Part shown: one piece after another, positions 7,206-26,752 of the stretch
Layout: every line of letters begins with the position of its first letter
How positions within the stretch are numbered: the stretch's first letter is position 1
NCBI RefSeq assembly: GCF_003018235.1
Contig: NZ_CP027437.1
Source: Escherichia coli
GTDB lineage: Bacteria; Pseudomonadota; Gammaproteobacteria; Enterobacterales; Enterobacteriaceae
Direction: 5' to 3' (one strand)
Length of the DNA stretch: 64,000 nt
Notes under the pieces: model-generated
The model's database searches: none
What the model saw: the letters and a program-made list of their open reading frames with translations, nothing else
Told to the model about the DNA's origin: nothing
Program-made: the position numbers and the translations under genes

Positions 7206-7739
7206 ATCTCCTCCAGGTAAGTCGGGTACGACCTGGCTTACCTCTTTCGCTCTCGTCAGAATTCCATCAAGATTAATTGCTAAAAAGCGTGCTAAAGAAA
7301 GAAGATCGTTATCGGCGAACGGGCCGATCACTCATGCAGGAAGCATAGATCCTTTGAGCGGAGTTTCTGATATCTGAGGAGTGCGAAATGCAATTGAGCA
7401 GCAGTGAACCTTGCGTGGTGATCCTGACCGAAAAAGAGGTAGAGGTAAGCGTTAATAACCATGCCACGTTTACCCTTCCGAAAAACTACCTGGCCGCCTT
7501 CGCGTGCAACAATAACGTCATTGAACTCTCAACGTTAAATCACGTATTAATCACCCACATCAACCGCAACATCATCAACGATTATCTGTTGTTTTTAAAT
7601 AAGAACTTAACCTGCGTAAAGCCCTGGTCGCGGCTGGCTACCCCGGTTATCGCTTGTCATAGCCGTACACCGGAAGTGTTCCGGCTAGCCGCCAACCACA
7701 GCAAGCAGCAACCCAGCAAACCCTGCGAAGCGGAGTTGA

Positions 7740-9810
<2,071 letters not shown>

Positions 9811-10151
9811 TCAAAGCGATATTCAGCATTACTGGAATCTGCGAATTGTCGCCAGTTCGCTATGTTTAAGCCCCAGCCTGCTCAAAAAGAAATTAAAAAA
9901 CGAAAATACCAGCTATAGCCAGATTGTCACAGAGTGTCGTATGCGTTACGCCGTACAGATATTATTGATGGATAACAAAAATATCACTCAGGTAGCGCAA
10001 TTATGTGGCTATAGCAGCACGTCGTACTTTATCTCTGTTTTTAAGGCGTTTTACGGCCTGACACCGTTGAATTATCTCGCCAAACAGCGACAAAAAGTGA
10101 TGTGGTGAAGGGCAAAGCGGAAACAGATAAGACGGGCATAAATGAAGAAGA

Positions 10152-10198
10152 AATGGCGCGCCCTGCAGGATTCGAACCTGCGGCCCACGACTTAGAAG
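10152..10198. other. Prophage attachment-site copy: 47 bp identical to the 3' portion of argU (partial tRNA, not a functional gene)
   Basis: Exact 47-nt match to 52089-52135 (reverse complement of the tRNA-Arg 3' end including acceptor stem and T-arm); sequence diverges on both sides. Confidence 0.85.
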
Positions 10199-10620
10199 TT
10201 CCTAGAACGACATTTTAAGTCAACAAATTACCGCGCCATCTCTGCGCTCACACGTCCCACTACCTCAAAACATGTAAAGCCTTGCAAGCCATTGTGAGGC
10301 CTTATGTGTCTCAGTTTTGTCCCTCTTTTTTGTACTAAAAAACATAGTAATTGAGGATAAACCTCATGCTATTTTCGCTTATATGCCTCTAAAGGCATGG
10401 CACTTAAATAGATAAAAGCACCACAAAAGCATAAAAAACCACACAGTAAAACCGCAATATGAAACAATAACAGATAATTAAACCAAAAACAGATAGCGCA
10501 TTGTGATAATCATTCAATACTAAACAAAATATAAACAGTGGAGCAATATGTAATTGACTCATTAAGTTAGATATAAAAAATACATATTCAATCATTAAAA
10601 CGATTGAATGGAGAACTTTT

Positions 10621-11574
10621 ATGCGGGCGAAACTTCTGGGAATAGTCCTGACAACCCCTATTGCGATCAGCTCTTTTGCTTCTACCGAGACTATATCGTT
10701 TACTCCTGACAACATAAATGCGGACATTAGTCTTGGAACTCTGAGCGGAAAAACAAAAGAGCGCGTTTATCTAGCTGAAGAAGGAGGCCGAAAAGTCAGT
10801 CAACTCGACTGGAAATTCAATAACGCTGCAATTATTAAAGGTGCAATTAATTGGGATTTGATGCCCCAGATATCTATTGGGGCTGCGGGCTGGACTACTC
10901 TCGGCAGCCGGGGTGGCAATATGGTCGATCAGGACTGGATGGATTCCAGTAACCCCGGAACCTGGACAGATGAAAGTAGGCACCCTGATACACAACTCAA
11001 TTATGCCAACGAATTTGATCTGAATATCAAAGGCTGGCTCCTCAACGAACCCAATTACCGCCTGGGACTCATGGCCGGATATCAGGAAAGCCGTTATAGC
11101 TTTACAGCCAGAGGTGGTTCCTATATCTACAGTTCTGAGGAGGGATTCAGAGATGATATCGGCTCCTTCCCGAATGGAGAAAGAGCAATCGGCTACAAAC
11201 AACGTTTTAAAATGCCCTACATTGGCTTGACTGGAAGTTATCGTTATGAAGATTTTGAACTCGGTGGCACATTTAAATACAGCGGCTGGGTGGAATCATC
11301 TGATAACGATGAACACTATGACCCGGGAAAAAGAATCACTTATCGCAGTAAGGTCAAAGACCAAAATTACTATTCTGTTGCAGTCAATGCAGGTTATTAC
11401 GTAACACCTAACGCAAAAGTTTATGTTGAAGGCGCATGGAATCGGGTTACGAATAAAAAAGGTAATACTTCACTTTATGATCACAATGATAACACTTCAG
11501 ACTACAGCAAAAATGGTGCAGGCATAGAAAACTATAACTTCATCACTACTGCTGGTCTTAAGTACACCTTTTAA
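10621..11574 (+). CDS. ompT: Outer-membrane protease OmpT (omptin family)
   Basis: 317-aa ORF with signal peptide and beta-barrel C-terminal Phe; matches OmpT. Confidence 0.9.
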   Translation: MRAKLLGIVLTTPIAISSFASTETISFTPDNINADISLGTLSGKTKERVYLAEEGGRKVSQLDWKFNNAAIIKGAINWDLMPQISIGAAGWTTLGSRGGNMVDQDWMDSSNPGTWTDESRHPDTQLNYANEFDLNIKGWLLNEPNYRLGLMAGYQESRYSFTARGGSYIYSSEEGFRDDIGSFPNGERAIGYKQRFKMPYIGLTGSYRYEDFELGGTFKYSGWVESSDNDEHYDPGKRITYRSKVKDQNYYSVAVNAGYYVTPNAKVYVEGAWNRVTNKKGNTSLYDHNDNTSDYSKNGAGIENYNFITTAGLKYTF

Positions 11575-11823
11575 GAACGCCAACTAAAATTTCCCCGAGG
11601 TGAAAATCGCCCCGGGGAATAACTAGCCATATCAATGTAACAATTAACCCTTAAAATAAACCCAGAAGGTTATTAACTGAATCACATAGAAAACCATCAA
11701 TTATAGTGTGTATAAAATGGGCGACAGCAACCCAATTACAAATTAATGGTTCCAGAATATCACATCAAAAAACACGCTATATAATATTATAATTAATATG
11801 TAGACAACTTGTAATAAACATTA

Positions 11824-12573
11824 TCAGTCAATTGTTTTGTTTATTCCATCTGTGACGCCGATTACTTTCTCAAAATAATGAGATGGCGTGACACCATAAT
11901 AATCTTTAAATGCACATATGAAATATGAAGTACTGTTATAGCCACATTTCTGGGCTACAACATTGATAGAATAAGAGTTTGAAGTTATGAGTTTTTTTGC
12001 ATACCTCATCCTAGTGTCTCTCAATACTTCAGTAAATGACGTTCCTTCATCCCTTAATCTTTTTTTTATTAAACTTTCACTCGTATAAATCAATTCCGCA
12101 ATATCTTTTAAATGCCATTGCCGCTCAATATTAAAACTGATTATTCCAGTAATTTTACAGGTAAATGTATTTATATTTGTTAGTATAAATGAATTTACAC
12201 TTTCGCGTTTTTTGAACATGGCAAGTAAGGATATACATAGTCGTTCTTTTAACCAAAGGGAGTGTGAGTCTGCTATTTTAATCCCTTCAAACAGAGAAAA
12301 AACAAGCGATAATGGAGGTTCCTCTTCAGCAATATAGTCATTCTTATCAAGAGTAAATTTGCCAGGCAGCTCATTATTCACGTCGATAAAAAAGGATAAA
12401 CATGTTTTCTTATCTATATCAACAATTCTTAGTTTAGAGGGGCATACTGGTAACTCCCTTCTAATTTTGTCGCTTACAATAAACAATGAATTTTTTTTGA
12501 ACGAGATAACTCTCCTGTTTATAATTAAATCAAATGATTGACAGATGAAAACTACGGAGCAAACATAATCCAT
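11824..12573 (-). CDS. appY: AraC-family transcriptional activator AppY
   Basis: 249-aa ORF with C-terminal AraC HTH (…[26 protein letters not shown]); AT-rich gene as in K-12. Confidence 0.85.
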
Positions 12574-13234
12574 CTTGCACCTATCATAAAATTAAAACAA
12601 GTTGATAATAGTCAAATAACAACCAATTAAATACACAATCATAATCAGGATGATGTGCATTTATATTTTTATACACAAAATTATAGTTTGCAAATTTTAA
12701 TAAATTTCATTTAAGATTAAATTATTATATGTATATTATTTTTTATTCTAACGTATTTCAAAGTTACATTTTTCAACGCTTACTATGCTTTTTATTAACA
12801 TAAACTCACTACAACGCACCTGAAACCTCTTGCTATATATATGTCAACCGTTTGAATTTAAAATAAAAAGAGTATCATTTTTACTTGCATTTCTTATCAA
12901 GTCACATTCAACAACAGTAACAAAACATTATTAGAACCATTCAATTAACAAAAAACCAACATCCGGATTGCTTAACTTTTCTTTATTAAACGATATTGAA
13001 AATCAATTGATAAAATACATCTAAACAACTTTTTGGGGCGCAAAAGCATAACATCAAACCAACAAATAACACACCGAAAAAACTCACAATTAATAACCTA
13101 TGATATACATACTGTTTATTATGGTTGAATAAGCCACTCGATATCTGGCGTAACGGAAGTGTCTACACTGTTCAGCAGCACCCGATACTTCCATGCCTCT
13201 AGCAACAATCTTTCCTCCTCCGTTGTAATTTCCA

Positions 13235-13378
13235 GATCTACAGCATGCTGAAGTGGCGCAATATGCTCACTCTCATTTTACCCTCAAAAATCCGGTCACA
13301 TTCTGCACAGTTCAACGCATTACGTTGTAGATCGGTGTTCTGGTCATTTGTTGATACACGTACATAGCCAATAAGCAT
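13235..13378 (-). pseudogene. Truncated Gin/Pin/Cin-family serine DNA invertase (only about 30 N-terminal residues conserved, then frame decays to a stop)
   Basis: Minus-strand translation from ATG at 13378: MLIGYVRVSTNDQNTDLQRNAL… (canonical invertase N-terminus with catalytic Ser region) followed by unrelated residues and stop after 47 codons; no ORF of invertase length in 12.6-13.4 kb. Confidence 0.7.
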
Positions 13379-13439
13379 GTTAAATCCCCTTGGTAAAAGC
13401 AGGAATGATGCCATTTGCTTGTTATTTCTTCATTTTCAT

Positions 13440-13460
13440 AAACGTTGGTTTGGGAGAAGG
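13440..13460. repeat. Left inverted repeat / recombination site of invertible tail-fibre segment (gix/pix-like)
   Basis: AAACGTTGGTTTGGGAGAAGG; reverse complement partner at 15279-15300 with 15-nt perfect core TTGGTTTGGGAGAAG. Confidence 0.75.
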
Positions 13461-13926
13461 CTCTGCATTACCTGTTGGTGTGCCTGTTCCATGGCCTTCA
13501 GCCACACCGCCAACAGGCTGGCTGAAATGCAACGGTGCGGCATTTTCTGCTGAAGAATACCCGGAACTGGCAAAGGCTTATCCAACAAATAAATTACCTG
13601 ATTTACGCGGTGAGTTTATTCGTGGCTGGGATGACGGGCGCGGTATTGATGCAGGACGTGTTTTATTGAGTATTCAGGCCGGAATGCTGGAAAAGCACCG
13701 TCATCCTGTTGTCGCCAACGATGAGTATGACTCAAAAGAGGAATGGGAACTAGCGACAATCTTCAGAAGAGCATATAAGCAAGGCAGGGGGCTTGATGCT
13801 GCCGCTGCCGGAGGGAGTCTGATCCCATCACCGACACTTCATTCACGAGGGAGTATCGGTAATACTGGCGGGAGTGAAACCCGTCCACGAAATATTGCAT
13901 TTAACTATATCGTGAGGGCTGCATAA
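13441..13926 (+). CDS. Alternative tail-fibre C-terminal (variable) segment, currently in the non-expressed orientation
   Basis: Contains the conserved side-tail-fibre C-terminal motif (PWPSATPPTGWLKCNGAAF…YPELAKAYP…LPDLRGEFIRGWDDGRGID); begins exactly at the inverted repeat; the ORF-track start at 13390 is read-through. Confidence 0.7.
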   Translation, partial: NVGLGEGSALPVGVPVPWPSATPPTGWLKCNGAAFSAEEYPELAKAYPTNKLPDLRGEFIRGWDDGRGIDAGRVLLSIQAGMLEKHRHPVVANDEYDSKEEWELATIFRRAYKQGRGLDAAAAGGSLIPSPTLHSRGSIGNTGGSETRPRNIAFNYIVRAA

Positions 13927-14528
13927 TGGATAACGCCGTATTAAATAGCGAGCTTATTACCACGAAGGCGGGGAATATTACCGTCTATAACTATGATGGT
14001 GAGACGCGGGAATATATTTCTGCATCAACTGAATATCTTGCAGTGGGTGTCGGTATTCCAGCATATTCCTGTTTAGACGCTCCTGGTACATCTAAGGCTG
14101 GTTATACAATTTGCCGTTCTGTGGATTTAAAATCATGGGAATATGTGTCAGACCATCGCGGTGAAATCGTCTATAACACCGAAACGGGAGATGCCAAAGA
14201 AATCACAGCACTAGGCGACTATCCCGAAAATACAACCACTATCGCCCCGTTAACGCCATACGATAAATGGGATGGTGAAAAATGGGTGACAGATACTGAG
14301 GCACAACACGGTGCCGCAGTAGAAGCGGCAGAAGCACAGCGCCAGTCACTGATTGATGCAGCAATGGCTTCCATCAGTCTGATTCAACTGAAATTGCAGG
14401 CCGGACGTAAACCGACGCAGGCAGAAACAACCAGACTTAACGCTGTGCTGGATTACATTGACGCGGTGACGGCAACAGATACCAGCACCGCGCCGGATGT
14501 CATCTGGCCTGAACTGCCGGAGGCGTAG
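13926..14528 (+). CDS. Tail fibre assembly protein (Tfa family), partner of the alternative fibre segment
   Basis: 200-aa ORF, start overlaps fibre stop; C-terminal Tfa-type motif (…DYIDAV…TSTAPDVIWPELP). Confidence 0.75.
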   Translation: MDNAVLNSELITTKAGNITVYNYDGETREYISASTEYLAVGVGIPAYSCLDAPGTSKAGYTICRSVDLKSWEYVSDHRGEIVYNTETGDAKEITALGDYPENTTTIAPLTPYDKWDGEKWVTDTEAQHGAAVEAAEAQRQSLIDAAMASISLIQLKLQAGRKPTQAETTRLNAVLDYIDAVTATDTSTAPDVIWPELPEA

Positions 14529-14943
14529 GCCATTCAATATCTGGCGCACTGGAGGTATCAACCAGCTCCAGTGCATCCAGATAATCCAGCCACAAATTAT
14601 ATTGCGCCAGTTCCTCACCTTTCAGACGACCAATAGCGGCTTTACCGGGCCATTGTTTACTGTTCATGTATTCGTTGGCCTGGTTAATCAATAATTGCCT
14701 CTCTGATTCGGCCTGTTCAATAAGTTCCTCATGTGATGGTGGAGGTATTTCAGCCCATGTGGGAAAACCATTTTCCCCTGCAACTCGGATTTTCCCTTGT
14801 GGCGGTTCCGCCATATATTTTACAGAAATATCATCAGGAATATCTAATGCATTAGCAGGCCATGTTCCATTTACTTCATAAGTGTTTTTTAAATTAACAG
14901 CATAAAAAGCATTTTCCGAAGGGGAATAAATATATTGATTCAT
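14500..14943 (-). CDS. Tail fibre assembly protein (Tfa family), partner of the expressed fibre
   Basis: 147-aa ORF with the same C-terminal Tfa motif (…DYLDALELVDTSSAPDIEWPTPP); convergent with the other tfa. Confidence 0.75.
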   Translation of the reverse strand: MNQYIYSPSENAFYAVNLKNTYEVNGTWPANALDIPDDISVKYMAEPPQGKIRVAGENGFPTWAEIPPPSHEELIEQAESERQLLINQANEYMNSKQWPGKAAIGRLKGEELAQYNLWLDYLDALELVDTSSAPDIEWPTPPAVQAR

Positions 14944-14944
14944 A

Positions 14945-15583
14945 TTATCTTCCTATTGCGATAATCATAGTTCCATACAAACCATTTCCGGTTGATACTT
15001 TTAAGGTTACTGATGTCCTTGTTGTCGTGTACCCCATAAGTTTAAAGGTCGGAGCAGCCGTTAATGTGCCATCTGACCATAAGGCACTAACAGCCAGTGC
15101 GCCTGAAGGAAATGCAATAGGGAAATTACCTGTAGTTCCGTTAGTGTCCGCCCCATAAACATTCATCGAAAACATTTGGACAATATGACCACTTGGTAAC
15201 TGAAACCAGTTTTTGCCAGATGGAAATGCAGACATATCTGGTATCTGATTTTCCCCTGTTCCCACATTCCGTTTTGCCGCTTCTCCCAAACCAAGGTTTT
15301 CGAGAGCCGTTTTCACCGTGCCGTCCGATTTGATATCGCCAAACGGATTTTTGCGGCTTAACAGCAGCGCACGAAGCGCGGTAAGCAGCTGGTCATGCCG
15401 CCCCTTCTCCAGGCTGGCACCGGATGCCTCCACCACGCTGCAGAGTTCTTCCTGCAACATGTCAAAGTAGTCATCATCCAGATCGGTGGCAGGTGTGCCG
15501 GTCTGGGGGTTACCACGGGTAAAACCGTTCTTACCCGCGCCGAACTTATCCTTCTGCGCGGTTTTCGTGTCTATACGATGCAT
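14945..15583 (-). CDS. Tail fibre protein: constant N-terminal region (to about residue 100) fused to the currently expressed variable C-terminal segment
   Basis: 212-aa ORF directly downstream of baseplate genes; the right inverted repeat lies inside it at codons encoding [13 protein letters not shown]. Confidence 0.75.
15279..15300. repeat. Right inverted repeat / recombination site of invertible tail-fibre segment
   Basis: Reverse complement AAAACCTTGGTTTGGGAGAAGC pairs with 13440-13460. Confidence 0.75.
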
Positions 15584-15586
15584 GGA

Positions 15587-16171
15587 TTACTCCGGATATT
15601 TAAAAATTACGTAGGTATGCGAAGGGCAGAGTTTGTTAAGCACACACTCGACAACGGTGTCGCCCCAGATACGCAGTGCGGAATCACAGGGATCACCACA
15701 TGTCATCCAGGTGGTGTTGGTGGCAGCTGGCATGTTGACCTGCCAGTAATACCGCCATTCCGGCGCATTCACCGCGTCAGTACAGGCCGATGAGCAGGTG
15801 AAGGTGCTTTTGTCGTATCGCGTGATGGTGGCATCTGGTCTGCCCAGGGCAGCAAGCTGTGCAAGATAAAAATCCTCGTTGATGCCGCCCGCCAGGTTAA
15901 CCTTCGCATCCAGCCGTTGCTGACGCTGGCGAAGGGTCTGTGTCCCTGCGGGAATACATTCATCCGGCAGGCCGCACAGACGCTCCCAGCGGTTTATCAG
16001 TTCGGTGGTGGTGCGCGGATCCAGCTCCCGCATCAGGGCATCCGCACGCTGATGAACACGGGTTAATGACGGTGCTGCACCGGCAATCGCCGGATCGCTG
16101 GCTGACCACGCCGGACCGGGCGGCAACAGTGCTGACAACAGACGGATGTAATCATCGTTTGTCACGTCCAT
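15587..16171 (-). CDS. Mu gp48-like tail/baseplate protein (YmfQ-like)
   Basis: 194-aa ORF between baseplate J and tail fibre; order matches the Mu/e14 baseplate cluster. Confidence 0.65.
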
Positions 16172-17220
16172 GAAATCGTCCCCAGAACCGCCAGTTCGTT
16201 TTTCGCAATGGAGATATTGTCTGCCGGTGCAAGCAACTGATGGCTGTATTCCCCGTTCGCACCGGAAATCGCTTCACTGATACGCGACACCTTCAGCTCT
16301 CCCTGCGGATAACCATCACGCAGCAGGAACGAACGCAACTCCGCGGTAATGGCAGCCCGTATTTCTGGTGTGTCCGGCGTCACGCGGATATGAAAATCCA
16401 CTTTATGCGCCACCGGCCTGAATACATACAAATCAGAGCCTGCCACCGGGGCCAGTGGCTCAATGTGTTGTCTTGCAGCCGTTTCCGTTGATTCTTCCGG
16501 AATGGGATTAATCAGGTCACTGCTGGCAATCATCACACCGACAGTCCCCGTTCCCATCCAGTGGCGGTATGTCCATGCACGGGTAATGCCTGGCACTTCT
16601 TTAGCCCAGACGACATAGTCCCCGTCAGCCCCGCCCTGAGGCGTCCAGTAATACCGCTCAATGACGCGGGCGCGCCACGTTTCCAGCTCTTCAGTATCAA
16701 ATCCGCCTGTAAGGGTGTCAGCCACACCGGAAGACGGCAGACCATTCACCGGTGTGACCAGGATTAATGCCGTACCGTCGTCAGCGTTACCGACCGCACC
16801 TGCACTTGAGCAGGCGATCGGCACGCGCAGGACTCCACCTGAGCTGGTTGCATCAGAAGTTGCCGTGTACTGCACCAGGTCATCGCGCTGAATAACACTC
16901 CCGGCGGTCACCTTCAGGCCATCGCTGACACCTTCCCAGCGCATATACCCGCTGGCAGACGTGGCCCCCTTGCGCGGACACCGTTTCATCGCAGCATGTC
17001 GCGCCAGCCAGGACTCATCGCACAGGTCAGGCAGCATGTTCATTGCCAGATAATCGATGTAACCGTAAACCGTATGCAGCGCCGCCGCATACACCTTTGC
17101 CCGCACGTCTTCATCCATGCGCCGGAGCGTGTCGCTGACGTCCAGCCTGGCGAATAAATCGTTACGGAGCATACTGATATTTTCTGCCAGCGTCGGGCGC
17201 TGAAATTCACTGTCCGCCAT
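16162..17220 (-). CDS. Baseplate J-like protein (Mu gp47 family)
   Basis: 352-aa ORF in conserved position; overlapping starts and stops with neighbours. Confidence 0.7.
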
Positions 17221-17635
17221 GCGTTATCGCACTCCACAGATCATCAAAAGAAATCATTACCGGTCCGTCACGACGCCAGAGAGTGATACTGTTACCCAGT
17301 TCATTAATCCCGGTGCGGCGGATATCCAGATCAATACGGGACACCACGCCGTCATCAATCATCCATTGCAGGCATTCGCGGATATACCCCCTTACCGTCT
17401 GCACCAGTTGATTGGTCAGTTTGCTGCGCTGAAGCAGCCACAGTCGGGAGCCGTAACGGTCATTCTGTACCGCAGGCCAGGTATCCCCCCACCATCCCAT
17501 CGGGACGTCGGCATTGTCATCAGGTTCCGCCCGCCGCCAGGTAAACAGGGAAATCACCACGGCGCGGGTCAGCGGATCCAGCGGTGCGCTGGCGCAGGTG
17601 CGTTTACCGTTCACCGTCAGCCACACTTCCATCAT
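17207..17635 (-). CDS. Baseplate assembly protein (Mu gp46 family)
   Basis: 142-aa ORF, conserved position in Mu-like tail cluster. Confidence 0.6.
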   Translation of the reverse strand: MMEVWLTVNGKRTCASAPLDPLTRAVVISLFTWRRAEPDDNADVPMGWWGDTWPAVQNDRYGSRLWLLQRSKLTNQLVQTVRGYIRECLQWMIDDGVVSRIDLDIRRTGINELGNSITLWRRDGPVMISFDDLWSAITHGGQ

Positions 17636-18183
17636 GCCTCCATCGCTTTATCAGGTTTGTCGGTGTTACTGCCCTGACCGTTCTCTCTGTGACGATGCCC
17701 GTTATAGGCAAGCCGCATCGCTGACATGGTGGTGCCGCCGGAGTCGCACAGGTCTTTCACCTGTCCGGTCACTTCCAGGTCCATTTCAAAACGTGCCTTA
17801 GGCGCATTGTGAAACGTGATCGTTTTACCTGCACCGTCCACCACGATCCCCTCCCGGGTCAGCGTCACGGACTGCCCCTGATCGTCATAGACAGCCACCT
17901 CACCCGTCTGCAGCCCTTTCAGGCGGTAGCGACGGTCCGACACCGTAACAACCACCGCATGAGAACGGTCGCCATCCGGAAACAACACCACCGCTTCCGC
18001 ACCGCTGTTTGCCCTTGCGGTAAAACCGTAGGGTTCAAGATGTTCAACCCCGGCTTTGGGTTCACCGGCAATCAGGGACACATCCACGGTCTGACATTTC
18101 GTGGCGGCACTGATGCTTTTCACCACTGCCCGCCCAATCAGGCCGAGGAGTTGTCGCTGCATGGCTTCAATCGTCCTCATCAA
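17632..18183 (-). CDS. Baseplate spike/assembly protein (Mu gp45 / gpV-like)
   Basis: 183-aa ORF, conserved position; OB-fold-like N-terminus typical of spike proteins. Confidence 0.6.
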   Translation of the reverse strand: MMRTIEAMQRQLLGLIGRAVVKSISAATKCQTVDVSLIAGEPKAGVEHLEPYGFTARANSGAEAVVLFPDGDRSHAVVVTVSDRRYRLKGLQTGEVAVYDDQGQSVTLTREGIVVDGAGKTITFHNAPKARFEMDLEVTGQVKDLCDSGGTTMSAMRLAYNGHRHRENGQGSNTDKPDKAMEA

Positions 18184-19259
18184 AACGGGTCCTCCTGTAC
18201 TCTGGCTTTTTTCTTTTTCCGCGCGCCGGGGGCTTCGGGTTCAGGCAGATAAGCATCAGGTGGGCCGACACGGATTTCCGTCAGGGTGCCATTCTGGTCC
18301 TGAGTAAACGTGACTTCCGAGACAAGCAGTTCGGTATTGTCGAAACCACAGACCGGATCGAAGACAATCACCCGCTGGTTGGGCTGCCACAGCGTACCGT
18401 TACCCTGTCGCCAGCCCTGCACCACATAGGTGGTTTCATCCGTCCGCGCCGCCCGTTGTCGGGCTTCAAAGTCAGCACGCGCAATACAGCCTGCCCCCGT
18501 GGCCTGCCCTGTCTGCCTGATATACATCGGACGGTAACGGGCAATAAATGCGTCCTCTGTGCGGGCCCGCAGCGCGGTGGTGGTGGCCTCACCGAAATCA
18601 TCGTCGTTTCCGGCACGCTGCCCCGCCACCTGGTAAACTGAAAACCGCTCCCGGATACTCTTCTCCGTATCACAGGAAAGGATGTTTTCCCCAAGTACCA
18701 GCGCGGTATGTGCCCGCGTTGAGCCAATACCGCCAATCACCAGCCTGCCGTGCGGGTCGTCATAAGCCAGCGCCTGCTGCTGACCGAGTATTTTGTTGAT
18801 TACCTCAATCACCGTTTCACCGTGATCAGGCTGGACATCAGGAATAACACCCGACGGCGCACCGCTGTTCACCACCTCAATGCCGAAAGGCGCAGCAAGC
18901 GCCTGCGCAATCTGTACCAGCGATCGTCCGTTAAACTGTGTCGGTTCGGCTGCACAGTCAATCAGGTCAGCGGTCAGACTACGCCCAGCAATACCGGTGC
19001 TGACCGAACGGGCATCGTAACGAACGGGAGTCGCCTCCACCCAGCCGGTGATCACCAGCTCATCACCAATCAGCACCTCCACTTTTGAACCGTTTTTAAT
19101 GCGCGGCTGAAGCGTGGTGATACCCTCATCTCCCGGCCACTGGCGGGTGATCTCCACACTGAAATCCCGCGCCAGTCGTTCAACACCGGCACCGATGCGC
19201 ACCGATGTCCAGCCATTCCACTCCCGGCCATTTACCCGTAGCGTGACGTTATCGTTCAT
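18180..19259 (-). CDS. Tail/baseplate hub protein (Mu gp44 / P2 gpD-like)
   Basis: 359-aa ORF following the DNA circulation gene as in Mu. Confidence 0.6.
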   Translation of the reverse strand: MNDNVTLRVNGREWNGWTSVRIGAGVERLARDFSVEITRQWPGDEGITTLQPRIKNGSKVEVLIGDELVITGWVEATPVRYDARSVSTGIAGRSLTADLIDCAAEPTQFNGRSLVQIAQALAAPFGIEVVNSGAPSGVIPDVQPDHGETVIEVINKILGQQQALAYDDPHGRLVIGGIGSTRAHTALVLGENILSCDTEKSIRERFSVYQVAGQRAGNDDDFGEATTTALRARTEDAFIARYRPMYIRQTGQATGAGCIARADFEARQRAARTDETTYVVQGWRQGNGTLWQPNQRVIVFDPVCGFDNTELLVSEVTFTQDQNGTLTEIRVGPPDAYLPEPEAPGARKKKKARVQEDPF

Positions 19260-20632
19260 TGCACTGGCACCTTCAGAGGGATCACCGGCACAAAGCCGGG
19301 ATGCGTAATGGCATTACGCCGGATAATGTCCGCGTCACGCGCCGCGTTATCAAACCAGGTCGCCGCCAGCACCAGCGCGGGTAAAACCTCATCCGGCGTG
19401 CGCTGAATGATCCGTGCAGACTGTTCAAGGCGCGTGTTGATATCCGCATTCAGATCTGCTTTCACCCGGCGCAGCGCCAGAAACAGCGCATCACTGGTTG
19501 TACGGGACAACTCCTTATCAATTGCCGTATTCAGTGTGTCGCGAATGTCAGTCAGTTCTTCCCACGTTGGCAGGTCAACCGTGTTTTTCACCGCCGGTGC
19601 ATTGTTCAGTGCCGGATGCGTGACGGAAGGCCAGCCGGAGCTCTGCGCGGGTGTTGTTGACTGCCCCACTGCGGCATTCTGCATCACCGCAGAAGTTGTT
19701 GGCGCAGGCAATCGGGTGACGGCATACGCCGCTTCGCTGATTGCGGTCGTACGAAGGATGCTGGCAACCACGTTACGCTGCTGCGTCGCCGTGGCGGTGG
19801 TTTTACTGTCCGTTTTCCAGACGCCGCGCGGTTGCAGATCGCTGCCGAGGCTGACACCGGAAAGCGTTTTGATCATGGTGACCAGGTCGCTGGCGTTACC
19901 ATAAAGGCGTTTCCCGGTACGCCACATTTTCTGCACCTGCTCAACGAAATTTTTTCCTGACGATGGCGGCGGCAGAAGTACCGAGATATCCCCCTGCAAC
20001 AGCCTGGCAGCATCCGATACGGCAGAATCCACCACTTTCATCGCATCAGAAATATACCCAAGCATTGTGCCGGCATTACCGACGACGTCGTTCTGCACAA
20101 AATCTGCCACGCCATCGATACTGAAACCACTGAAACTGTCACTGATGCAGTCATCCAGTGCAGAACAGGATGACATCAGCGTCTGCGCCGTCGCCGCACC
20201 TGATGTGGGGTAAGAGAGTTCTCCCGCTTCGACAAACTTCAGGTCAAAGCGGACAATACGCCCTTCACTCTTCGATGTGCTGACCCGAACTTCTCCGTCA
20301 ACACAGACTTTCAGCTCACCGTATGTCGGATGGACAAGCGTGCCGGGACCGGGTTTATTCAGCGCGTCAATCAGGCGATCGCGCTGGTCAAAGCAGTCAT
20401 CTCCCACCACATAAGCCGTGATGGACGGGCGAAAAGTGATTTTCCCCAGGTCTTCGGTATAGGGTTTGTCGCGGTTCGGGTATTCATGTGTTTCCACACG
20501 GCGACCGGTTCCCGCACTTTCTTCTTCAACCTTAAACGGCACGCCGCGAAATGACGCGTCCTGAAGTCTGTCACGCCAGCCTGAAGACGACGAAAGTAAT
20601 GAAGGTCGGGTGGGAAATGAGGATAAATCCAT
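19256..20632 (-). CDS. Mu N-like DNA circulation protein
   Basis: 458-aa ORF immediately downstream of tape measure; N-terminal region resembles the Mu gp43 family. Confidence 0.6.
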   Translation of the reverse strand: MDLSSFPTRPSLLSSSSGWRDRLQDASFRGVPFKVEEESAGTGRRVETHEYPNRDKPYTEDLGKITFRPSITAYVVGDDCFDQRDRLIDALNKPGPGTLVHPTYGELKVCVDGEVRVSTSKSEGRIVRFDLKFVEAGELSYPTSGAATAQTLMSSCSALDDCISDSFSGFSIDGVADFVQNDVVGNAGTMLGYISDAMKVVDSAVSDAARLLQGDISVLLPPPSSGKNFVEQVQKMWRTGKRLYGNASDLVTMIKTLSGVSLGSDLQPRGVWKTDSKTTATATQQRNVVASILRTTAISEAAYAVTRLPAPTTSAVMQNAAVGQSTTPAQSSGWPSVTHPALNNAPAVKNTVDLPTWEELTDIRDTLNTAIDKELSRTTSDALFLALRRVKADLNADINTRLEQSARIIQRTPDEVLPALVLAATWFDNAARDADIIRRNAITHPGFVPVIPLKVPVQ

Positions 20633-20656
20633 AGACTGACCTCAAAAAGGACTGCG

Positions 20657-22564
20657 TTATCGTGGAAAACGAAAAGGGGAATACCCCACATCGTGCGTGA
20701 TTTTCATCAGGGGATCGGCTTTGCCCGGTACATCAATTATCTTCATACCTGGCGGAGCATTCTCGAACGTAACTTTCAGCTCGCTGTGCTGTGTCATGGA
20801 AGAAGATGGATTCAACAGCGGAACATTGGGTTTGTACTGACTCAGGCTGGCCTGATACTGCTCGTACTCTTTACGATCAAAAAAAGGCGTCCAGTCTGAA
20901 GCCAGAAACAGCCCTTTATTATCCAGCCAGTTAACCGTATCTTCAGGAACAACACTTTCCAGAGTATCTTTAACCGGCTCATACATCAGGGTTCCCAGAA
21001 AACCATATACCCCGGCCTTCCCGATAAAGCCGCGGCCTTTCCCCATCAATCCCGTTTCTGCCGATACCTTCCCCAGCGTACGCATCTCTCTGGTCACTGC
21101 GGTAATGGATTTGGTAACGTCAGCAACCCATTTGGTTGCCATAAACAGGGCAATCGCTTTCAGAACAGTTTCCCATCCCCCCATCGCCTGCGCCGTTTCA
21201 TCCACCACGTGCCAGACTTTTTTTATGACAGGACCTACGGTTTCCCAGTTATCAATAATGAGGTAAGCGCCACCAACCAGAAGAGCAATCAGCCCCTTAG
21301 CAGGCGTCATATTCATCACACCGCCGAGAACTTTCATAATTCTGGACAAAGAGCCTGCAGCGGCTCCCACCGTCAGTAAGGCCAGACCGATTTTAGCAAT
21401 GGTCTTAACGAGCTCCGGGGTTTCACGGACAAACGTTCTCACTTCCTCAAGGAGCGGTTTTACCGCTTCAAGACCATCATTAACCTCAGGAAGAAACGTT
21501 CCCCCCAGCGTGGAAGAAATGGCATCAAGTTGATTTTGCAGAAGTAAAAGCTGGTTTTCCGTCGTCGCTGCCCTCGAAGCATATTCCTTCTGCATCGAAC
21601 TGCCATACTGCTGGGAATCCGCAACCCGTCTGAAGTTGGTACGCAACAAATCAAGGTTAGTCAGCAGAGGTGCTATCGCGCCCAGAGACTCTTTCCCGAA
21701 CAGGGCATTCAGCACAGCTGCCTGTTTTTCTTTGGGCACTTTAGCCATCGCATCCAGTACAGACAGCATGGTTCCCCGGGCATCTTTCTGCATATCAGCA
21801 GCTAATTTCTTCGGATTGATCCGCAGAAAACGTAATGCCTGTTTCTGCGATTTTGTCGCGGAATTTCCCGCGGTCAGGGAAAGCATGAAGTTCTTGATCC
21901 CTGTGGCGGCAATTTCTGACTCCACGCCCATCCCGGCAATGGTTGCCCCCATTGCCGCGATTTCGCCGGAAGCCACACCTGCAACACCACCTAAAGGACC
22001 AATACGCGTAACAATATCGGAGATTCTCTTCGCATTCGCCGGGCCGGTATTACCAAGGTAGTTGATTTTGTCAGCCAGCCCGGCCACTTCATCCTGCGTC
22101 ATATTAAACGCAGTACGCCACTGGGCCATCATCTGCCCGGACTCTTCAGCCGTGGTATCAAAGGCCACGCCCATCTTCACCGCATCAGTGGCAAACTGCA
22201 TCAGTTCATCACGTGCAATCCCGGCCTGACCGCCAGCCGCCACAATTTCCGCGATCCCGTCTGCAGACATGGGAAGCTCAGTAGACAAAGCGCGTACCTG
22301 CTCCGTCATGGCCTTAAACGCATCCGGCGTATCCAGACCGTCTACCACTTTGCGGACATCAGCCATCTTCGATTCAAGGGTGATGGCTGATTTTACAGGG
22401 AGTGCCAGTGCCCCCATTATTGCAGTACCCGCCCCGGCAGCGCCCAGAGCAAGGCTGGAGACTTCTTTCTGAAACCCCTTAAGCTGACGCTGCATACCTT
22501 TAAGCGGGCCGGACAGCCTGTCAACGGCGGTGATGATGGCTTTCAGCTGAAAATTATCAGCCAT
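20657..22564 (-). CDS. Tail tape measure protein
   Basis: 635-aa Ala/Gly-rich largely helical protein with hydrophobic segments, located between tail assembly chaperone and baseplate genes. Confidence 0.8.
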   Translation of the reverse strand: MADNFQLKAIITAVDRLSGPLKGMQRQLKGFQKEVSSLALGAAGAGTAIMGALALPVKSAITLESKMADVRKVVDGLDTPDAFKAMTEQVRALSTELPMSADGIAEIVAAGGQAGIARDELMQFATDAVKMGVAFDTTAEESGQMMAQWRTAFNMTQDEVAGLADKINYLGNTGPANAKRISDIVTRIGPLGGVAGVASGEIAAMGATIAGMGVESEIAATGIKNFMLSLTAGNSATKSQKQALRFLRINPKKLAADMQKDARGTMLSVLDAMAKVPKEKQAAVLNALFGKESLGAIAPLLTNLDLLRTNFRRVADSQQYGSSMQKEYASRAATTENQLLLLQNQLDAISSTLGGTFLPEVNDGLEAVKPLLEEVRTFVRETPELVKTIAKIGLALLTVGAAAGSLSRIMKVLGGVMNMTPAKGLIALLVGGAYLIIDNWETVGPVIKKVWHVVDETAQAMGGWETVLKAIALFMATKWVADVTKSITAVTREMRTLGKVSAETGLMGKGRGFIGKAGVYGFLGTLMYEPVKDTLESVVPEDTVNWLDNKGLFLASDWTPFFDRKEYEQYQASLSQYKPNVPLLNPSSSMTQHSELKVTFENAPPGMKIIDVPGKADPLMKITHDVGYSPFRFPR

Positions 22565-22648
22565 GCTTCATCTCCTCATTTATACGGACGGCCTCTGCCT
22601 CCAGATCAGCAAAGTGGGAAATAGCCGTCCGGCGAAGTTCAAGGGGGT

Positions 22649-22972
22649 TTAATTTCCAGAACCACGCGACATTGTAGAATCGCTTCCGGAGGTCTCTTCC
22701 GTCTCCAAGCCGGTAAAAAAACGCATTACAATCATGCCTGCCTTGAAAATATCCAGCTTCGTCATCTGCGCTGCAGACGAGCGCGGGATCCCGGCCAGAA
22801 GCGGGATATATTTCAGCGCTACCTGACTGTCCATTTTCATACCACCATCAGGTGAAACAGAGAAAGGGAACCCCAGCGCCTCAATCTCGTCATACGTAGG
22901 CTCACGTATTTCCAGCACATGCAGTGTTTCTTTGTGGGCGATGATCGGTTTTTTAAGTACAAGCTCAATCAC
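22649..22972 (-). CDS. Tail assembly chaperone (Mu gp41-like)
   Basis: 107-aa ORF between tail tube and tape measure. Confidence 0.55.
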   Translation of the reverse strand: MIELVLKKPIIAHKETLHVLEIREPTYDEIEALGFPFSVSPDGGMKMDSQVALKYIPLLAGIPRSSAAQMTKLDIFKAGMIVMRFFTGLETEETSGSDSTMSRGSGN

Positions 22973-23325
22973 TGGTAATCCCCTTCTTCACCGTGGAACT
23001 CAAGATCAACCGTGCCTTCTTCGGCATTATGGTTCGCTTCGCCGTGCAGCCAGGCAGACGACAGTACATAGACCTGACCGTTCGCCAGCTCGGCAGTGAT
23101 GGTCATCTCATCAGACGAGGTGATTTTGCTCACCGGAAAATTCTTCGGCACCTTGAAGGTCCCTTTGACATAGGGCGCACGGTGAGTTTCCTTGCGGTCC
23201 ACTGAACCGTCCAGGCCGATGATGTCATCATTGACCGTCCTGTTCATGGGCACCTCAATGCCGCCGGTCAGCGATAGCTGCTGACCGTCAATTTTGAAAT
23301 AACAGGTTCCCCCGATACGGGCCAT
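22969..23325 (-). CDS. Contractile tail tube protein
   Basis: 118-aa ORF directly downstream of sheath gene. Confidence 0.7.
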   Translation of the reverse strand: MARIGGTCYFKIDGQQLSLTGGIEVPMNRTVNDDIIGLDGSVDRKETHRAPYVKGTFKVPKNFPVSKITSSDEMTITAELANGQVYVLSSAWLHGEANHNAEEGTVDLEFHGEEGDYQ

Positions 23326-24821
23326 TATGCAGACTCCTCTGAATACTGAAGACGGAACTGGTTAACCACGGCAAAGACACGCAACTGGTTAACATAGTCA
23401 GGCGGGAACAGCGTGTTCAGGCGGTTCGGATCGCTGGCATCACGCTCCACAACCAGGTACTGCTTAAACAGTTCGTAGTTTTCCACGATCCCCGCACGCT
23501 CAAGCTGACGGTAGGTTGCCAGCAGTTCCCCTTTGATCACCGCCGGGGTGACAATCGCCTGACCGGGACCAAAGCGGGTACCGTCACTGGCAAGCTTGTG
23601 ACGCCCGTACTTACTGGTAATGACGGATTTCAGTTTGCGCAGTACATACGCGCTGGTATGCAGTGTCTCACTGTCGAGGTAGCTGTTATCCGCAACCCCG
23701 TAAGCGTTTTTCCTGTACGTGGTGACATCACGCTGAATGCGCAGTACCCCGCTTTCGACATACGCCGTTGCCACGCCATGAGACAGCAGGGTCTGTTGTT
23801 CTGTCATCGTGAACCGTTTCCCCTTCGGCGCAGGCAGCATACCCACCATCTCACCGGTCTGCGTGGGACGTGCCGGATCGTTGCGGATAAACACCGCTGC
23901 GCGGGCGGTACGGCTGGCTGCCAGCTCGTCGGCAGGCGTCTGGGTCTCTTTTTCGTACCCCGCCAGGGTAATGTGCTGCTGGTTAAACTGGTCACCTGCG
24001 TTCACCAGTTCTGACAGTGTGCCGGCCTTTGCCGTATACACATGACCATACAGCTGACGCGCATAGCTCCAGCGACCGCTGGTATCGTTCATCTCGGTCA
24101 CCAGCGTGTTAACAGAGGCCGTGTCGTTGAACGGCAGACCGATATAATCAAACGGCTCATCCGCCATTGCAGCCACCGCGCCGGTGAGAACCGGAGCGCC
24201 CGTTCCGGCGGTCCCCGTCGCCACGGCAATCTGTACGCCCGCTGGCAGCACTTCGCCCCCACCGAAGCCGTAGTAATTGAGGCTGACAGGAATTTCATTC
24301 CCGCAAAGCCCCTTATGGCGAGCGGTCAATGTAACCACACCAGCCGAAGATGAGGCCGTAAACGGCAGGGCCGGAACGGCATTGATGGCATCTTTGATAC
24401 TGCTGGCAATCGTCGCGACGTTATCGCCGTTGGTCACCGGTGCCTGCACGCGGGTACGTCCCACATAAACATTCACCGTGCCGGTTTCGGTTGCTGCCCC
24501 GGTCACCGTCAGCGTAACTGTTGCCGCCGCGCCTGTGGATTCAGGAACGGCAATCACATACAGCTCGCCAAACGGGTCGGTCTGGCGATAAGCCTCGACC
24601 ATACGCGCCAGCTGACTTCCCGCACCACAAATCTGGCGTGCATAGTCTGCCGACGGCATCAGTACCAGACTGTTGGCAACAATCTCTGCACCGTTATTGG
24701 CATGACCAATCAGCAGCGATGCTCCGCTGTCCTGTGCAGTATTCGCCGCCTGGTTATCCATTTCCGCATAAAACAACGGAACCAGCGTATTCGACGGAAT
24801 GGTGTTAAAGCTTATCGTCAT
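23325..24821 (-). CDS. Contractile tail sheath protein
   Basis: 498-aa ORF; size and position (sheath-tube-chaperone-tape measure) typical of myovirus tails. Confidence 0.8.
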   Translation of the reverse strand: MTISFNTIPSNTLVPLFYAEMDNQAANTAQDSGASLLIGHANNGAEIVANSLVLMPSADYARQICGAGSQLARMVEAYRQTDPFGELYVIAVPESTGAAATVTLTVTGAATETGTVNVYVGRTRVQAPVTNGDNVATIASSIKDAINAVPALPFTASSSAGVVTLTARHKGLCGNEIPVSLNYYGFGGGEVLPAGVQIAVATGTAGTGAPVLTGAVAAMADEPFDYIGLPFNDTASVNTLVTEMNDTSGRWSYARQLYGHVYTAKAGTLSELVNAGDQFNQQHITLAGYEKETQTPADELAASRTARAAVFIRNDPARPTQTGEMVGMLPAPKGKRFTMTEQQTLLSHGVATAYVESGVLRIQRDVTTYRKNAYGVADNSYLDSETLHTSAYVLRKLKSVITSKYGRHKLASDGTRFGPGQAIVTPAVIKGELLATYRQLERAGIVENYELFKQYLVVERDASDPNRLNTLFPPDYVNQLRVFAVVNQFRLQYSEESA

Positions 24822-24975
24822 CGGTATTCACCTTTTTATTCACGCGCCGGATATCACCCGCTGCTTCACGGCGCAGCCAGTAGTTGTTCTCGTCAACATT
24901 TCGCCCTTCGGCGGGCAAAAGGTCGCCGCGGGCAGGGTCAGGCACTGACCGCCCTTTAACAGGTTTGACAAACAT
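24805..24975 (-). CDS. Small hypothetical protein (56 aa) upstream of sheath, below ORF-track threshold
   Basis: ATG-initiated ORF MFVKPVKGRSVPDPARGDLLPAEG… whose stop overlaps the sheath start; fills the only gap in a tightly packed operon. Confidence 0.35.
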   Translation of the reverse strand: MFVKPVKGRSVPDPARGDLLPAEGRNVDENNYWLRREAAGDIRRVNKKVNTDDDKL

Positions 24976-24983
24976 GAGGATCC

Positions 24984-25544
24984 TCAGGAAGGAAGGGTTA
25001 TTTCGGTGTGATGTTCGATATCGCCGTCAGGCCCGTTACCGGGCTCGAGATAATCAACATCAATCGCCAGCGTTTGCAGTTCATCCAGACTGTTCAGATC
25101 ATCCTGCTGGCGGGTATCGTCTTCAGTCAGCTCGCTGATGACCGAAAAATCGAACTGATAAGTCAGCTCATGACGATTCAGATCCAGCAGCGTGCCGCCG
25201 TCATAGGTAATCGGGTTACCGCACGCTTCCGGGTTCCAGCCCAGCAGGGCCTTAAAGAGCATCTGCCGGACATCGTCCACCACATCATACGAGGCAAACT
25301 GACCGCGCTCATCACGCCCGTTACTCAGTATGACAACCACGGAGAAGCCCTCTTTCAGCTCCTGCCAGTAGTCGGTCTGGCTTTTGTTTTCTCCCGGAGA
25401 GTCATCACCCGGTACCACATACGCCGCCGGGAGTCTCAGCTTTCCGACCTCCGGCAGATTTTTGAACTGTGCCGCGCCTGCCACCCGGTTTTCAAAATAC
25501 GGGCAGCGGGCACGCAGCGCAGCAATAACAGGCGTCAGTTTCAT
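24984..25544 (-). CDS. Putative tail completion / neck protein
   Basis: 186-aa ORF between head-tail joining genes and tail sheath; function inferred from position only. Confidence 0.4.
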   Translation of the reverse strand: MKLTPVIAALRARCPYFENRVAGAAQFKNLPEVGKLRLPAAYVVPGDDSPGENKSQTDYWQELKEGFSVVVILSNGRDERGQFASYDVVDDVRQMLFKALLGWNPEACGNPITYDGGTLLDLNRHELTYQFDFSVISELTEDDTRQQDDLNSLDELQTLAIDVDYLEPGNGPDGDIEHHTEITLPS

Positions 25545-26432: not shown

Positions 26433-26752
26433 TGCGGAAAGTACCTGTACGGGCCGACAAGCCAGCCAAAACTCTGCGGCATGTCGAGTTTCTCCACTTC
26501 CGTAACCGACGAGCGGTTTTCGTAAAAATGGCTGATAAGCATCAGCATCCCCAGACGAATATCATCCGGCAGGTGCAGCCCGTCCGGATCGCTCTCCGGA
26601 ATGGTTTCATCCGGTGCATAGAGCTTCCGGTTCAGATACGTTTCCGTCCGCTTTTGCGCCGCACAGGCCAGCAGTTGCAGATGGCGGTCATCAGCATCGA
26701 AATCCTCATCCAGCCGGAGTTGGGCTTTAATCTCTTCCATTGTCAGAAGCAT
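26429..26752 (-). CDS. gp6-like head-tail connector protein
   Basis: 107-aa ORF downstream of capsid gene; typical size and acidic N-terminus. Confidence 0.5.
   Translation of the reverse strand: MLLTMEEIKAQLRLDEDFDADDRHLQLLACAAQKRTETYLNRKLYAPDETIPESDPDGLHLPDDIRLGMLMLISHFYENRSSVTEVEKLDMPQSFGWLVGPYRYFPQ

Follow-up and report, generated by a model that had tools for sequence, protein, structure and literature searches.

ompT and appY lie inside, and envY outside, a 42-kb prophage at argU in Escherichia coli

OmpT cleaves antimicrobial peptides and degrades recombinant proteins, and in Shigella and enteroinvasive E. coli (EIEC) it acts as an anti-virulence factor. AppY controls operons of anaerobiosis and the stationary phase. 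The residence of both genes in the DLP12 prophage at argU has been textbook knowledge since about 1990. A passage of PMC5723341, citing Nakata et al. 1993, places ompT within DLP12, as does PMC2588501, and PMC7545054 lends further support to cargo of this kind in the DLP12 family. Because ompT in DLP12 is established in the literature, the placement of ompT and appY that we report here is correct but already known. That one phage attachment site accounts for the presence or absence of ompT and appY across E. coli is likewise an established fact, and the stretch we analysed (64,000 nt, hereafter the window) adds current genome numbers to the known picture of DLP12 cargo.

Prophage boundaries at argU

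In the window, ompT and appY lie inside a 42-kb, att-bounded prophage in argU and envY lies beyond it, because an att copy separates envY from ompT, and intact argU (52091-52167), with the integrase gene beside it, stands at the other end. The features that define the boundaries are as follows.

7388..10108, plus strand: envY, outside the prophage and split (alignment to K-12 envY)
10154..10199 (core 10154-10198): envY-side att copy, which is the displaced argU 3' end (repeat search, blastn-short)
10200..10620, plus strand: attachment-site arm of the phage and ompT upstream region; in phage Kati it forms an uninterrupted stretch with the att core and int
50912..52075, plus strand: tyrosine integrase, 387 aa (Pfam Phage_integrase, E = 5.5e-47), ending 15 nt from argU
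52091..52167, minus strand: argU, intact tRNA-Arg(TCT) (ARAGORN), whose 3' 45 nt (52091-52135) are the integrase-side att core

The repeat search aligned the att copy with the argU 3' end (52091-52136) at 45 of 46 positions, 45 nt of them exact. The same 45-nt exact repeat was returned by blastn-short (10154-10198 against 52091-52135, 45/45), and 100 shuffles gave no match comparable to the 45/46 repeat. When genomes with an empty site were aligned to the window, the match stopped at 10198-10201, that is, at the att copy. An earlier, sequence-only reading had placed an att copy between envY and ompT, which the exact 45-bp repeat of the argU 3' end bears out; the positions of both att copies also agree with its placing of ompT and appY within the boundaries and envY outside them. 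A gap of 45 nt separates the att copy from the 3' part of envY, which ends at 10108. Upstream, the gene is interrupted by an IS21-family element of 1,954 bp (7776-9729) with a 5-bp target duplication, CTTTC, at its junctions; the two IS ORFs match Pfam rve and IstB_IS21.

Insertion in the argU 3' end with a direct repeat at the far boundary, and an adjoining DLP12-type integrase, are marks of the DLP12 family, and both were found here. The integrase is equal in length to that of phage PhiR68_2, and the DNA around it is 97.5% identical to PhiR68_2 and 99.4% identical to Kati. The predicted attP (51700-52135 joined to 10199-10700) aligned without interruption on Kati 5545-6483 (938 nt, 99.1% identity), and on PhiR68_2 it aligned across the record ends. 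Within the arm, an 80-nt segment (10242-10321) recurs in the Shigella phages SfI, SfII, SfIV and SfV at 96-97.5% identity, its SfIV counterpart sitting between gtrA and int, and phage 21 matches a shorter piece (10264-10323, about 92%).

During integration, the integrase recombines the tRNA gene with an attP core that repeats the final 45 nt of argU exactly. Beside int, argU is then completed by the phage-derived core, and the chromosomal 3' end of argU that it displaces stays next to envY, where the prophage ends. The cargo slot lies between the tail-fibre genes and attP, the position that corresponds to the b region in lambda and to gtrABC in SfV-type phages. Cargo in a slot next to attP would therefore come to lie just inside the envY-side att copy after integration.

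Two cargo genes and their distribution in E. coli

Three features make up the cargo region between the arm and the tail genes.

10621..11574, plus strand: ompT, omptin outer-membrane protease, 317 aa (Pfam Omptin PF01278, E = 5.5e-130)
11824..12573, minus strand: appY, AraC-family regulator, 249 aa (Pfam HTH_18 and HTH_AraC; annotated AppY in K-12 and PhiR68_2)
12574..13123, unstranded: very AT-rich intergenic region upstream of appY, 25-33% G+C (composition profile)

The coordinates of the sequence-only reading, 10199-12573, have as their exact limits the end of the att copy and the start codon of appY. The ompT match spans the full omptin profile (positions 1-283 of 283), and at the DNA level the gene is 98.5% identical to K-12-type ompT genes and 100% identical to ompT of strain 2014C-4587. 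appY is convergent with ompT, and the intergenic region upstream of it is 97.5-99.5% identical to K-12. In the composition profile, G+C was 25-39% over 11600-13200 and 36-48% over ompT, compared with 50-58% in the flanks. The deviating base composition expected of morons was thus present, and the description of the cargo as AT-rich (25-48% against 50-59% in the surrounding phage genes) was accurate.

Presence and absence among phages also followed the pattern of morons. Thirteen phage records contain ompT, and two of the thirteen also contain appY; SfIV and vB_EcoM-720R4, the relatives of the late genes described below, carry neither. Both genes are present in Kati (PP925833) and PhiR68_2 (PV340576), and Turner, 2G7b, ev243, PhiR49_1, PhiR26_1, PhiR30_1, PhiR29_1 and PhiR29_2 are ompT-only records. 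Recorded hosts of ompT-bearing phages include E. coli C, K-12 MG1655 and ECOR13. In literature searches with mostly irrelevant returns, no published description of the PhiR phages, Kati or Turner turned up.

By comparative alignment, ompT and appY are separable modules rather than one block. The ompT module spans 10199-11577, and homology in many genomes and phages breaks at 11577, 3 nt past the stop codon; appY belongs to a second cargo module (about 11578-13130). The ompT module occurs in about half of all E. coli, the appY module in a minority. The sequence-only reading had treated ompT-appY as prophage cargo and as a single block: the first part is upheld by the phage genomes and the empty sites, and the second gives way to two modules.

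We related att state to ompT in 5,426 complete E. coli genomes, using total counts and evenly spaced genome samples. The envY-argU-fimZ site was empty in 2,515 genomes (about 46%), and the att-ompT junction was present in 2,728 (about 50%), leaving about 183 outside both classes. An ompT match was found in 3,078 genomes and no match in 2,332. Only 816 genomes had the full envY-to-appY stretch, compared with the 2,728 that had the att-ompT junction. Among sampled ompT-negative genomes, envY lay directly beside intact tRNA-Arg in 12 of 12, and in a second sample a single att copy was present in 17 of 17. The proposed check, that genomes without a prophage at argU should also lack ompT-appY, therefore held in both samples, with the O157:H7 lineage as the exception.

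About 6% of genomes had ompT without the att-ompT junction, and the sampled cases were O157:H7-type, with ompT in another prophage. In O157:H7 the argU site is empty, and ompT occupies one end of a prophage-like element close to minCDE; the cargo downstream of it matches that of the argU element in strain 2014C-4587. Because ompT here sits in a different prophage, this exception also argues for phage carriage. In phylogroup B2-type genomes, ompT lies in a 3.4-kb remnant between the att copy and argU, and the att-ompT junction is 92-94% identical to the one in the window.

Taken as a whole, the position of the genes, the boundaries, the population pattern and the carriage in phage genomes lead us to give a probability of about 0.9 to the reading that ompT and appY are lysogenic-conversion cargo (morons) of argU-integrating, DLP12-family lambdoid phages. 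In the lysogen, the two genes are presumably driven by signals of their own, independent of phage development. A consensus scan of 10100-13400 found 11 promoter-like sites, compared with 12.1 expected from shuffles, among them a candidate upstream of ompT (10554-10581). The scan called no canonical terminator after ompT, where a hairpin without a T run is present. For K-12, expression of ompT and appY from the repressed prophage, with an effect on host phenotype, is known (e.g. PMC2588501, on ompT regulation).

A mosaic prophage and the seam beside the cargo

Beyond the appY module, the prophage changes character at a short seam and again about 23 kb further on.

13124..13271, minus strand: tfa', C-terminal remnant of a tail-fibre-assembly gene (translation; annotated as partial tail fiber assembly protein in K-12 and KOr019)
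13274..13378, minus strand: decayed invertase, first 35 codons of a PinE-type serine recombinase (BLASTP)
13390..14528, plus strand: inverted alternative tail-fibre tip and tail-fibre-assembly gene, a former invertible segment (Pfam Collar, Caudo_TAP)
13272..36604, minus strand: late module of SfIV/SfII/SfI/SfV type (lysis, terminase, HK97-like head, contractile tail)
36605..52142, unstranded: early region of DLP12/PhiR68_2 type (ybcN-to-rusA block, ybcK, ren, P, O, cII, gam/bet/exo, int)

The tfa' remnant is in effect the limit of the DLP12-type cargo block, and within it identity to K-12 falls from 97-100% to 86%. Fused to this remnant is that of the invertase, whose 35 residues agree at 30 positions with the N-terminus of PinE from strain A22, a 184-aa protein (BLASTP); the decayed invertase said to border the cargo is real. 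The neighbouring segment has the layout found beside pinE in A22. An equivalent tfa'-pin' fusion (85.7% identity) occurs in a prophage of KOr019 at another site and with other cargo. A strain-specific deletion as the origin of the invertase truncation was dropped because this homologous fusion exists.

SfIV matches 75% of the late module at 97.1% identity and vB_EcoM-720R4 matches 84% at 96.7%; of the 18 ORFs that run from large terminase to baseplate, 17 are as long as their SfIV counterparts or differ by a single residue. Against PhiR68_2 and Kati, the late module gave no megablast match of at least 150 nt, and 13272-36604 lacks the lambda-type late genes of the DLP12 family (nohD-type terminase, lambda-like tail). 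The early region, by comparison, has DLP12-type early genes, with four stretches at 95.4-98.4% identity to PhiR68_2. The cargo block (97.8%) and the int/early end (97.5-98.4%) are equally diverged from PhiR68_2. By these alignments, the prophage is a mosaic: between its DLP12/PhiR68_2-type ends, an SfIV-type myovirus module has taken the place of the late genes. Since both ends share the PhiR68_2/DLP12 lineage and the same divergence, the foreign piece is the middle and not the cargo.

This combination was found in none of the 5,426 complete E. coli genomes and none of 50,697 phage records. The best full-region match in the complete-genome set was 98.2%, and the source genome is itself outside that set. 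The appY-tfa'-pin'-tail junction (12800-13900) was matched at 80% coverage or more in 0 of 5,426 genomes (megablast), and a 50-nt exact pattern from the tfa'-pin' seam (13250-13299) was absent from IMG/VR viral contigs. With the seam absent from these sets, this 42-kb hybrid may not have travelled as a single phage. The one new detail here is a previously unrecorded mosaic vehicle for ompT-appY, which is of modest interest for research on phage mosaicism.

In one history of the mosaic, to which we give slightly less than an even chance, the cargo and early region are an older resident prophage into which an SfIV-type module recombined on the chromosome, with crossovers near 36605 and 13130-13270. 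ompT-appY would then lie inside the boundaries yet have arrived apart from the current morphogenetic genes. Ends alike in lineage and divergence around a different middle would fit such an origin, as would the drop in K-12 identity inside the tfa remnant, the tfa'-pin' module with other cargo elsewhere in KOr019, and the absence of the combination from the genomes, phage records and viral contigs. However, mixed infection followed by integration as a unit could form the same mosaic equally well, and sequence alone cannot discriminate between the two. The older-resident course is also a history of the cargo reading and no contradiction to it: an earlier DLP12-type prophage at this site may have left the cargo where it now lies.

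A much less probable history, one we consider a long shot, makes ompT-appY a separate remnant island of an earlier phage, with the present 39-kb body integrated later in tandem at argU. The tfa remnant and truncated invertase between appY and the tail genes, a late module of another phage type than the cargo block, and the unique junction are what such an island could leave behind. But tandem integration should also leave an att copy at the seam, the very repeat that had been named as fatal to the cargo claim, and a search of the whole element found none above chance. From appY to the tail genes, the best local Smith-Waterman score against the att core was 8, reached by 200 of 200 shuffles, compared with 46 for the real copy. 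Scores were at shuffle level in every sub-region of the element, and blastn-short found no internal att-like fragment longer than 10 nt anywhere inside it. The shared lineage and divergence of int, early region and cargo also speak against an island, as do working-looking phages that carry the same tfa' remnant and appY-ompT next to attP. The position of the right-hand seam within the tfa remnant points to recombination rather than tandem integration.

That ompT and appY are ancestral chromosomal genes by envY, with an argU 3' end duplicated by chance or secondarily and so mimicking a prophage, could accommodate the B2-type junction, whose lower identity is consistent with long residence at the locus, but is refuted by the 2,515 genomes with nothing between envY and argU and by the phage records with ompT/appY next to attP, and is further opposed by the missing second att copy in all sampled ompT-negative genomes, by the different prophage that holds ompT in O157:H7, and by a 45-nt repeat that is not a chance expectation.

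Returning to the mosaic itself, it is less likely than not that the 42-kb element is an intact, inducible hybrid phage combining DLP12-type integration and early genes, ompT-appY, and an SfIV-type head and contractile tail. If it were, ompT and appY would have a second kind of virion, with a different host range, for their horizontal spread, and tfa remnants would be recombination seams that allow one late module to exchange cargo blocks with another, unrelated one.

Comparison with known phages and prophages

K-12 DLP12 shares the integration site and att core with this element, its early genes are of the same family, and its envY-att-ompT-appY-tfa' stretch is 98.1% identical over window positions 9729-13271. 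However, DLP12 is a 21-kb defective remnant with a lambda-type late region, whereas the element here is 42 kb, with apparently intact genes and an SfIV-type late region. After the tfa remnant, K-12 has a ybcY methyltransferase pseudogene that this element lacks, and envY is intact in K-12 but IS-interrupted in the window.

In PhiR68_2 and Kati, int, attP, ompT and appY are contiguous and the cargo block is 97.8-98.0% identical to ours; with PhiR68_2, the early region is also held in common (95-98%), whereas that of Kati is unlike the one here. Unlike this element, both phages have a lambda-type head and a non-contractile tail (genes V, H, J, lom, stf), and in both a full-length invertase, ybcY and ynaE separate appY from the tail fibres.

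SfIV, SfII, SfI and SfV share the late module (97% identity) and the 80-nt segment of the attachment-site arm, and in SfIV the conversion genes gtrIV, gtrB and gtrA occupy the same slot, from the tail-fibre genes to attP/int. Their cargo consists of O-antigen glucosylation genes (gtrABC) rather than ompT/appY, their early regions differ, and they integrate at thrW rather than argU.

The lom and bor genes and the b region of lambda offer a more general likeness, being accessory envelope or virulence genes that are expressed from the prophage, dispensable for phage growth, patchily distributed and deviating in base composition. lom and bor are embedded in the late operon region, whereas ompT and appY are at the attP-proximal end; PhiR68_2 carries lom, bor, nmpC, ompT and appY together.

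Attachment sites and the ompT-appY cargo

The window contains the nfrBA-ybcH-envY / argU-fimZ-sfm region of E. coli in the orientation opposite to the K-12 map. The two copies of the attachment (att) sequence bounding the prophage in argU matched exactly over 45/45 positions (blastn-short).

Features of the argU prophage locus (window positions)
10154-10199, att copy: 46-mer matching 52091-52136 at 45/46 positions (equalled by 0/100 shuffles)
10621-11574, plus strand, ompT: Omptin, full profile (E = 5.5e-130), just within the envY-side repeat
11824-12573, minus strand, appY: AraC-type HTH (Pfam), within the envY-side repeat
13378 down to ~13274, minus strand, invertase remnant (pin'): N-terminal 35 residues of a PinE-type invertase (184 aa)
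50912-52075, tyrosine integrase ORF, 387 aa: Pfam Phage_integrase (E = 5.5e-47), ending 15 nt short of the tRNA
52091-52167, minus strand, tRNA-Arg(TCT) (argU): sole tRNA found by ARAGORN in the window

The sequence-only reading had placed ompT and appY inside the att boundaries, at 10199-12573, and envY outside. This geometry was right and the coordinates were exact, as the repeats lie at 10154-10199 and 52091-52136 and envY stops at 10108, 45 nt short of the nearer one. As also proposed, the cargo is AT-rich, with a G+C content of 25-39% over 11600-13200 and 36-48% over ompT (25-48% together) vs 50-59% in the flanking chromosome and phage tail genes. The decayed invertase beyond appY is likewise real. 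Its 35-codon PinE-type N-terminus (30/35 residues identical to PinE of strain A22) is fused to tfa', the final ~50 codons of a gene for tail-fibre assembly with its stop near 13124, and RefSeq labels the homologous tfa' stretch in K-12 and KOr019 a partial tail fiber assembly protein.

Internal att-like fragments would count against ompT-appY being cargo of this phage, and none rose above shuffle level in any sub-region. With the whole argU gene as query, blastn-short (word size 7) gave no argU match longer than 10 nt in 10200-52090, and the hits found had E of at least 3. Smith-Waterman alignment to argU, run on both strands, peaked at 7 in the ompT-appY spacer (reached by 199/200 shuffles), 8 from appY to the tail genes (200/200), 12 over the whole cargo (100/200) and 15 in the rest of the prophage (16/20), compared with 46 for the genuine att copy as control. 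Nothing in the element points to tandem or sequential integration through att.

ompT was present in 13 records of the phage collection (50,697 records). We predicted attP by joining window 51700-52135 to 10199-10700, and this aligned with phage Kati (46 kb) in a single unbroken stretch of 938 nt at 99.1% identity; in PhiR68_2 the alignment spans the record ends. Kati has the order integrase, att core (mis-annotated as tRNA-Pro), ompT, appY, tfa remnant, methyltransferase, invertase and tail fibres. The int-attP-ompT contiguity would be the product expected from excision at the two repeats, and the cargo reading therefore rests on more than position.

As the data show or directly imply, the integrase recombines argU with an attP core that equals the last 45 nt of this tRNA gene. 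The phage att copy then completes argU beside int, the displaced argU 3' end marking the opposite prophage boundary. The cargo slot lies between the tail-fibre genes and attP. In SfIV, gtrIV, gtrB and gtrA occupy the slot that holds ompT-appY here. From established K-12 knowledge, we infer that in the lysogen ompT and appY would each rely on their own transcription signals. Consensus scans spoke neither for nor against this: 10100-13400 contained 11 promoter-like sites vs 12.1 expected from shuffles, and no canonical terminator was called after ompT.

Two further observations concern the envY side. envY is split into halves (7388-7775 and 9730-10108) by a 1,954-bp IS21-family element (7776-9729) with IstA-like rve (7862-8884) and IstB (8881-9663) ORFs and a 5-bp target duplication, CTTTC, at 7771-7775 and 9730-9734; envY is therefore probably inactive in the strain carrying the window, though it lies outside the prophage. 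Just inside the att copy, an 80-nt segment of the attachment-site arm (10242-10321) was 96-97.5% identical to SfI, SfII, SfIV and SfV, and phage 21 matched a shorter part only (10264-10323, ~92%). Its SfIV counterpart sits between gtrA and int, and its SfII counterpart is annotated as a terminator. The segment may serve as an arm site for integrase or IHF, or as a terminator.

ompT among complete E. coli genomes

Of 5,426 complete E. coli genomes, 2,515 had an empty site in which envY, argU and fimZ adjoin (a synthetic envY-argU-fimZ junction covered to at least 80% in one place) and 2,728 carried the att-ompT junction (10154-11000), a sum of 5,243 that leaves ~183 genomes in other states. ompT was found at 80% coverage or more in 3,078 and was wholly unmatched in 2,332. 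We sampled 12 evenly spaced matches ranked below the ompT genomes; these are ompT-negative because the ranking puts every ompT genome above matches to envY and att only. envY directly adjoined an annotated full tRNA-Arg in 12/12, and a separate att-ompT junction search gave a single att-core copy in 17/17 sampled ompT-negative genomes, bearing out, with O157:H7 as an exception, the expectation that ompT-appY are absent without an argU prophage.

The whole envY-att-ompT-appY stretch occurred in 816 of the 5,426 genomes, and of the 2,728 att-ompT genomes no more than 816 have appY alongside ompT, as do 2 of the 13 phage records. Homology breaks at 11577, 3 nt past the ompT stop, in many genomes and most ompT phages, with other cargo beyond. 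ompT and appY are thus separable modules.

ompT occurred without the att-ompT junction in ~350 genomes, and the sample of these was O157:H7. This lineage has an empty argU site, and its ompT is found close to minCDE, where it ends a prophage-like element (strain F8797, locus positions 7031-17071), with homology to the window starting only at 10508. The series following ompT there (alpha/beta hydrolase, tfa remnant, SAM methyltransferase, stress and ferritin-like proteins, Mn catalase) is shared with the argU element of 2014C-4587 (locus positions 6001-12954); ompT has therefore moved between prophages of differing insertion sites, within a cargo block of at least 8 kb. In B2-type genomes, ompT occupies a 3.4-kb stump of att, ompT, methyltransferase, tfa pseudogene, int pseudogene and argU (GPEC673, locus positions 4001-7461), whose flanks lack envY and fimZ. 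ompT appears to be the sole functional gene retained, and the junction has only 92-94% identity to the window. ompT has been lost in Shigella and EIEC (PMC5723341).

Large avian E. coli plasmids carry an omptin gene that shares 89% identity with ompT over the 5' half of the latter (for example the 158-kb avian NZ_CP095800.1; 25 ompT-search matches were on plasmids). Such plasmids are a second, non-phage vehicle for omptins.

Mosaic structure and relation to DLP12

PhiR68_2 (49.7 kb; recorded host ECOR13) amounts to an intact DLP12. Its early genes (int, exo/bet/gam, cI/cro/cII, O/P/ren, a transporter gene resembling emrE, ybcK/L/M/N) lead into rusA, Q, a porin of the nmpC type, lysis genes and bor; a complete head and tail of lambda type comes next, then lom, stf/tfa, pin, ynaE and ybcY, and the record ends with a tfa remnant, appY and ompT, cut at attP. 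The window matched it over 10199-13271 and 36605-52142 (95.4-98.4% identity, the two largest blocks being equally divergent), with no megablast match of at least 150 nt over 13272-36604. That late region, comprising lysis, terminase, head, contractile tail and baseplate genes, was 97% identical to late genes of SfIV, SfII, SfI and SfV, which are serotype-converting Shigella phages, and of vB_EcoM-720R4. From large terminase to baseplate, 17/18 ORF lengths equal those of SfIV or differ by one residue, so the element looks intact.

Identity to K-12 was 97-100% up to ~13129 and then fell to 86% within the tfa remnant. The tfa'-pin' fusion (13124-13378) has a homologue in KOr019 (locus positions 6941-7212, 85.7% identity), at the end of a different, unrelated prophage near yfhH. 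The seam therefore falls within the tail-fibre-assembly remnant, which indicates recombination and not integration. The fusion is not strain-specific, and it seems that tail modules with an inactive invertase are in circulation. The junction (12800-13900) was in 0/5,426 complete genomes at 80% coverage or more, no record of the phage collection reached beyond 13271 into the truncated invertase, and the 50-nt exact seam pattern (13250-13299) was not found in IMG/VR viral contigs. The exchange may have taken place in a chromosome or during a mixed infection, the sequence being compatible with either. Elsewhere, a repressor-like ORF (44656-45411) encodes 251 aa vs 212 aa for PhiR68_2 cI, which matches only over 44960-45409 (95.6%), suggesting that the immunity region is one more patch of the mosaic.

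The finding of ompT-appY as prophage cargo is correct and its interpretation supported. ompT in an argU prophage is already known: DLP12, a defective prophage of the lambdoid type, contains it (PMC5723341, citing Nakata et al. 1993; PMC2588501), and argU islands with ompT are listed for ExPEC strains in a review (PMC7545054). The sole new item is the previously unrecorded mosaic vehicle for the cargo. The element agrees with the DLP12 family in site, att, integrase and early genes, but lacks the lambda-type late genes of that family; it is best described as a DLP12/SfIV hybrid.
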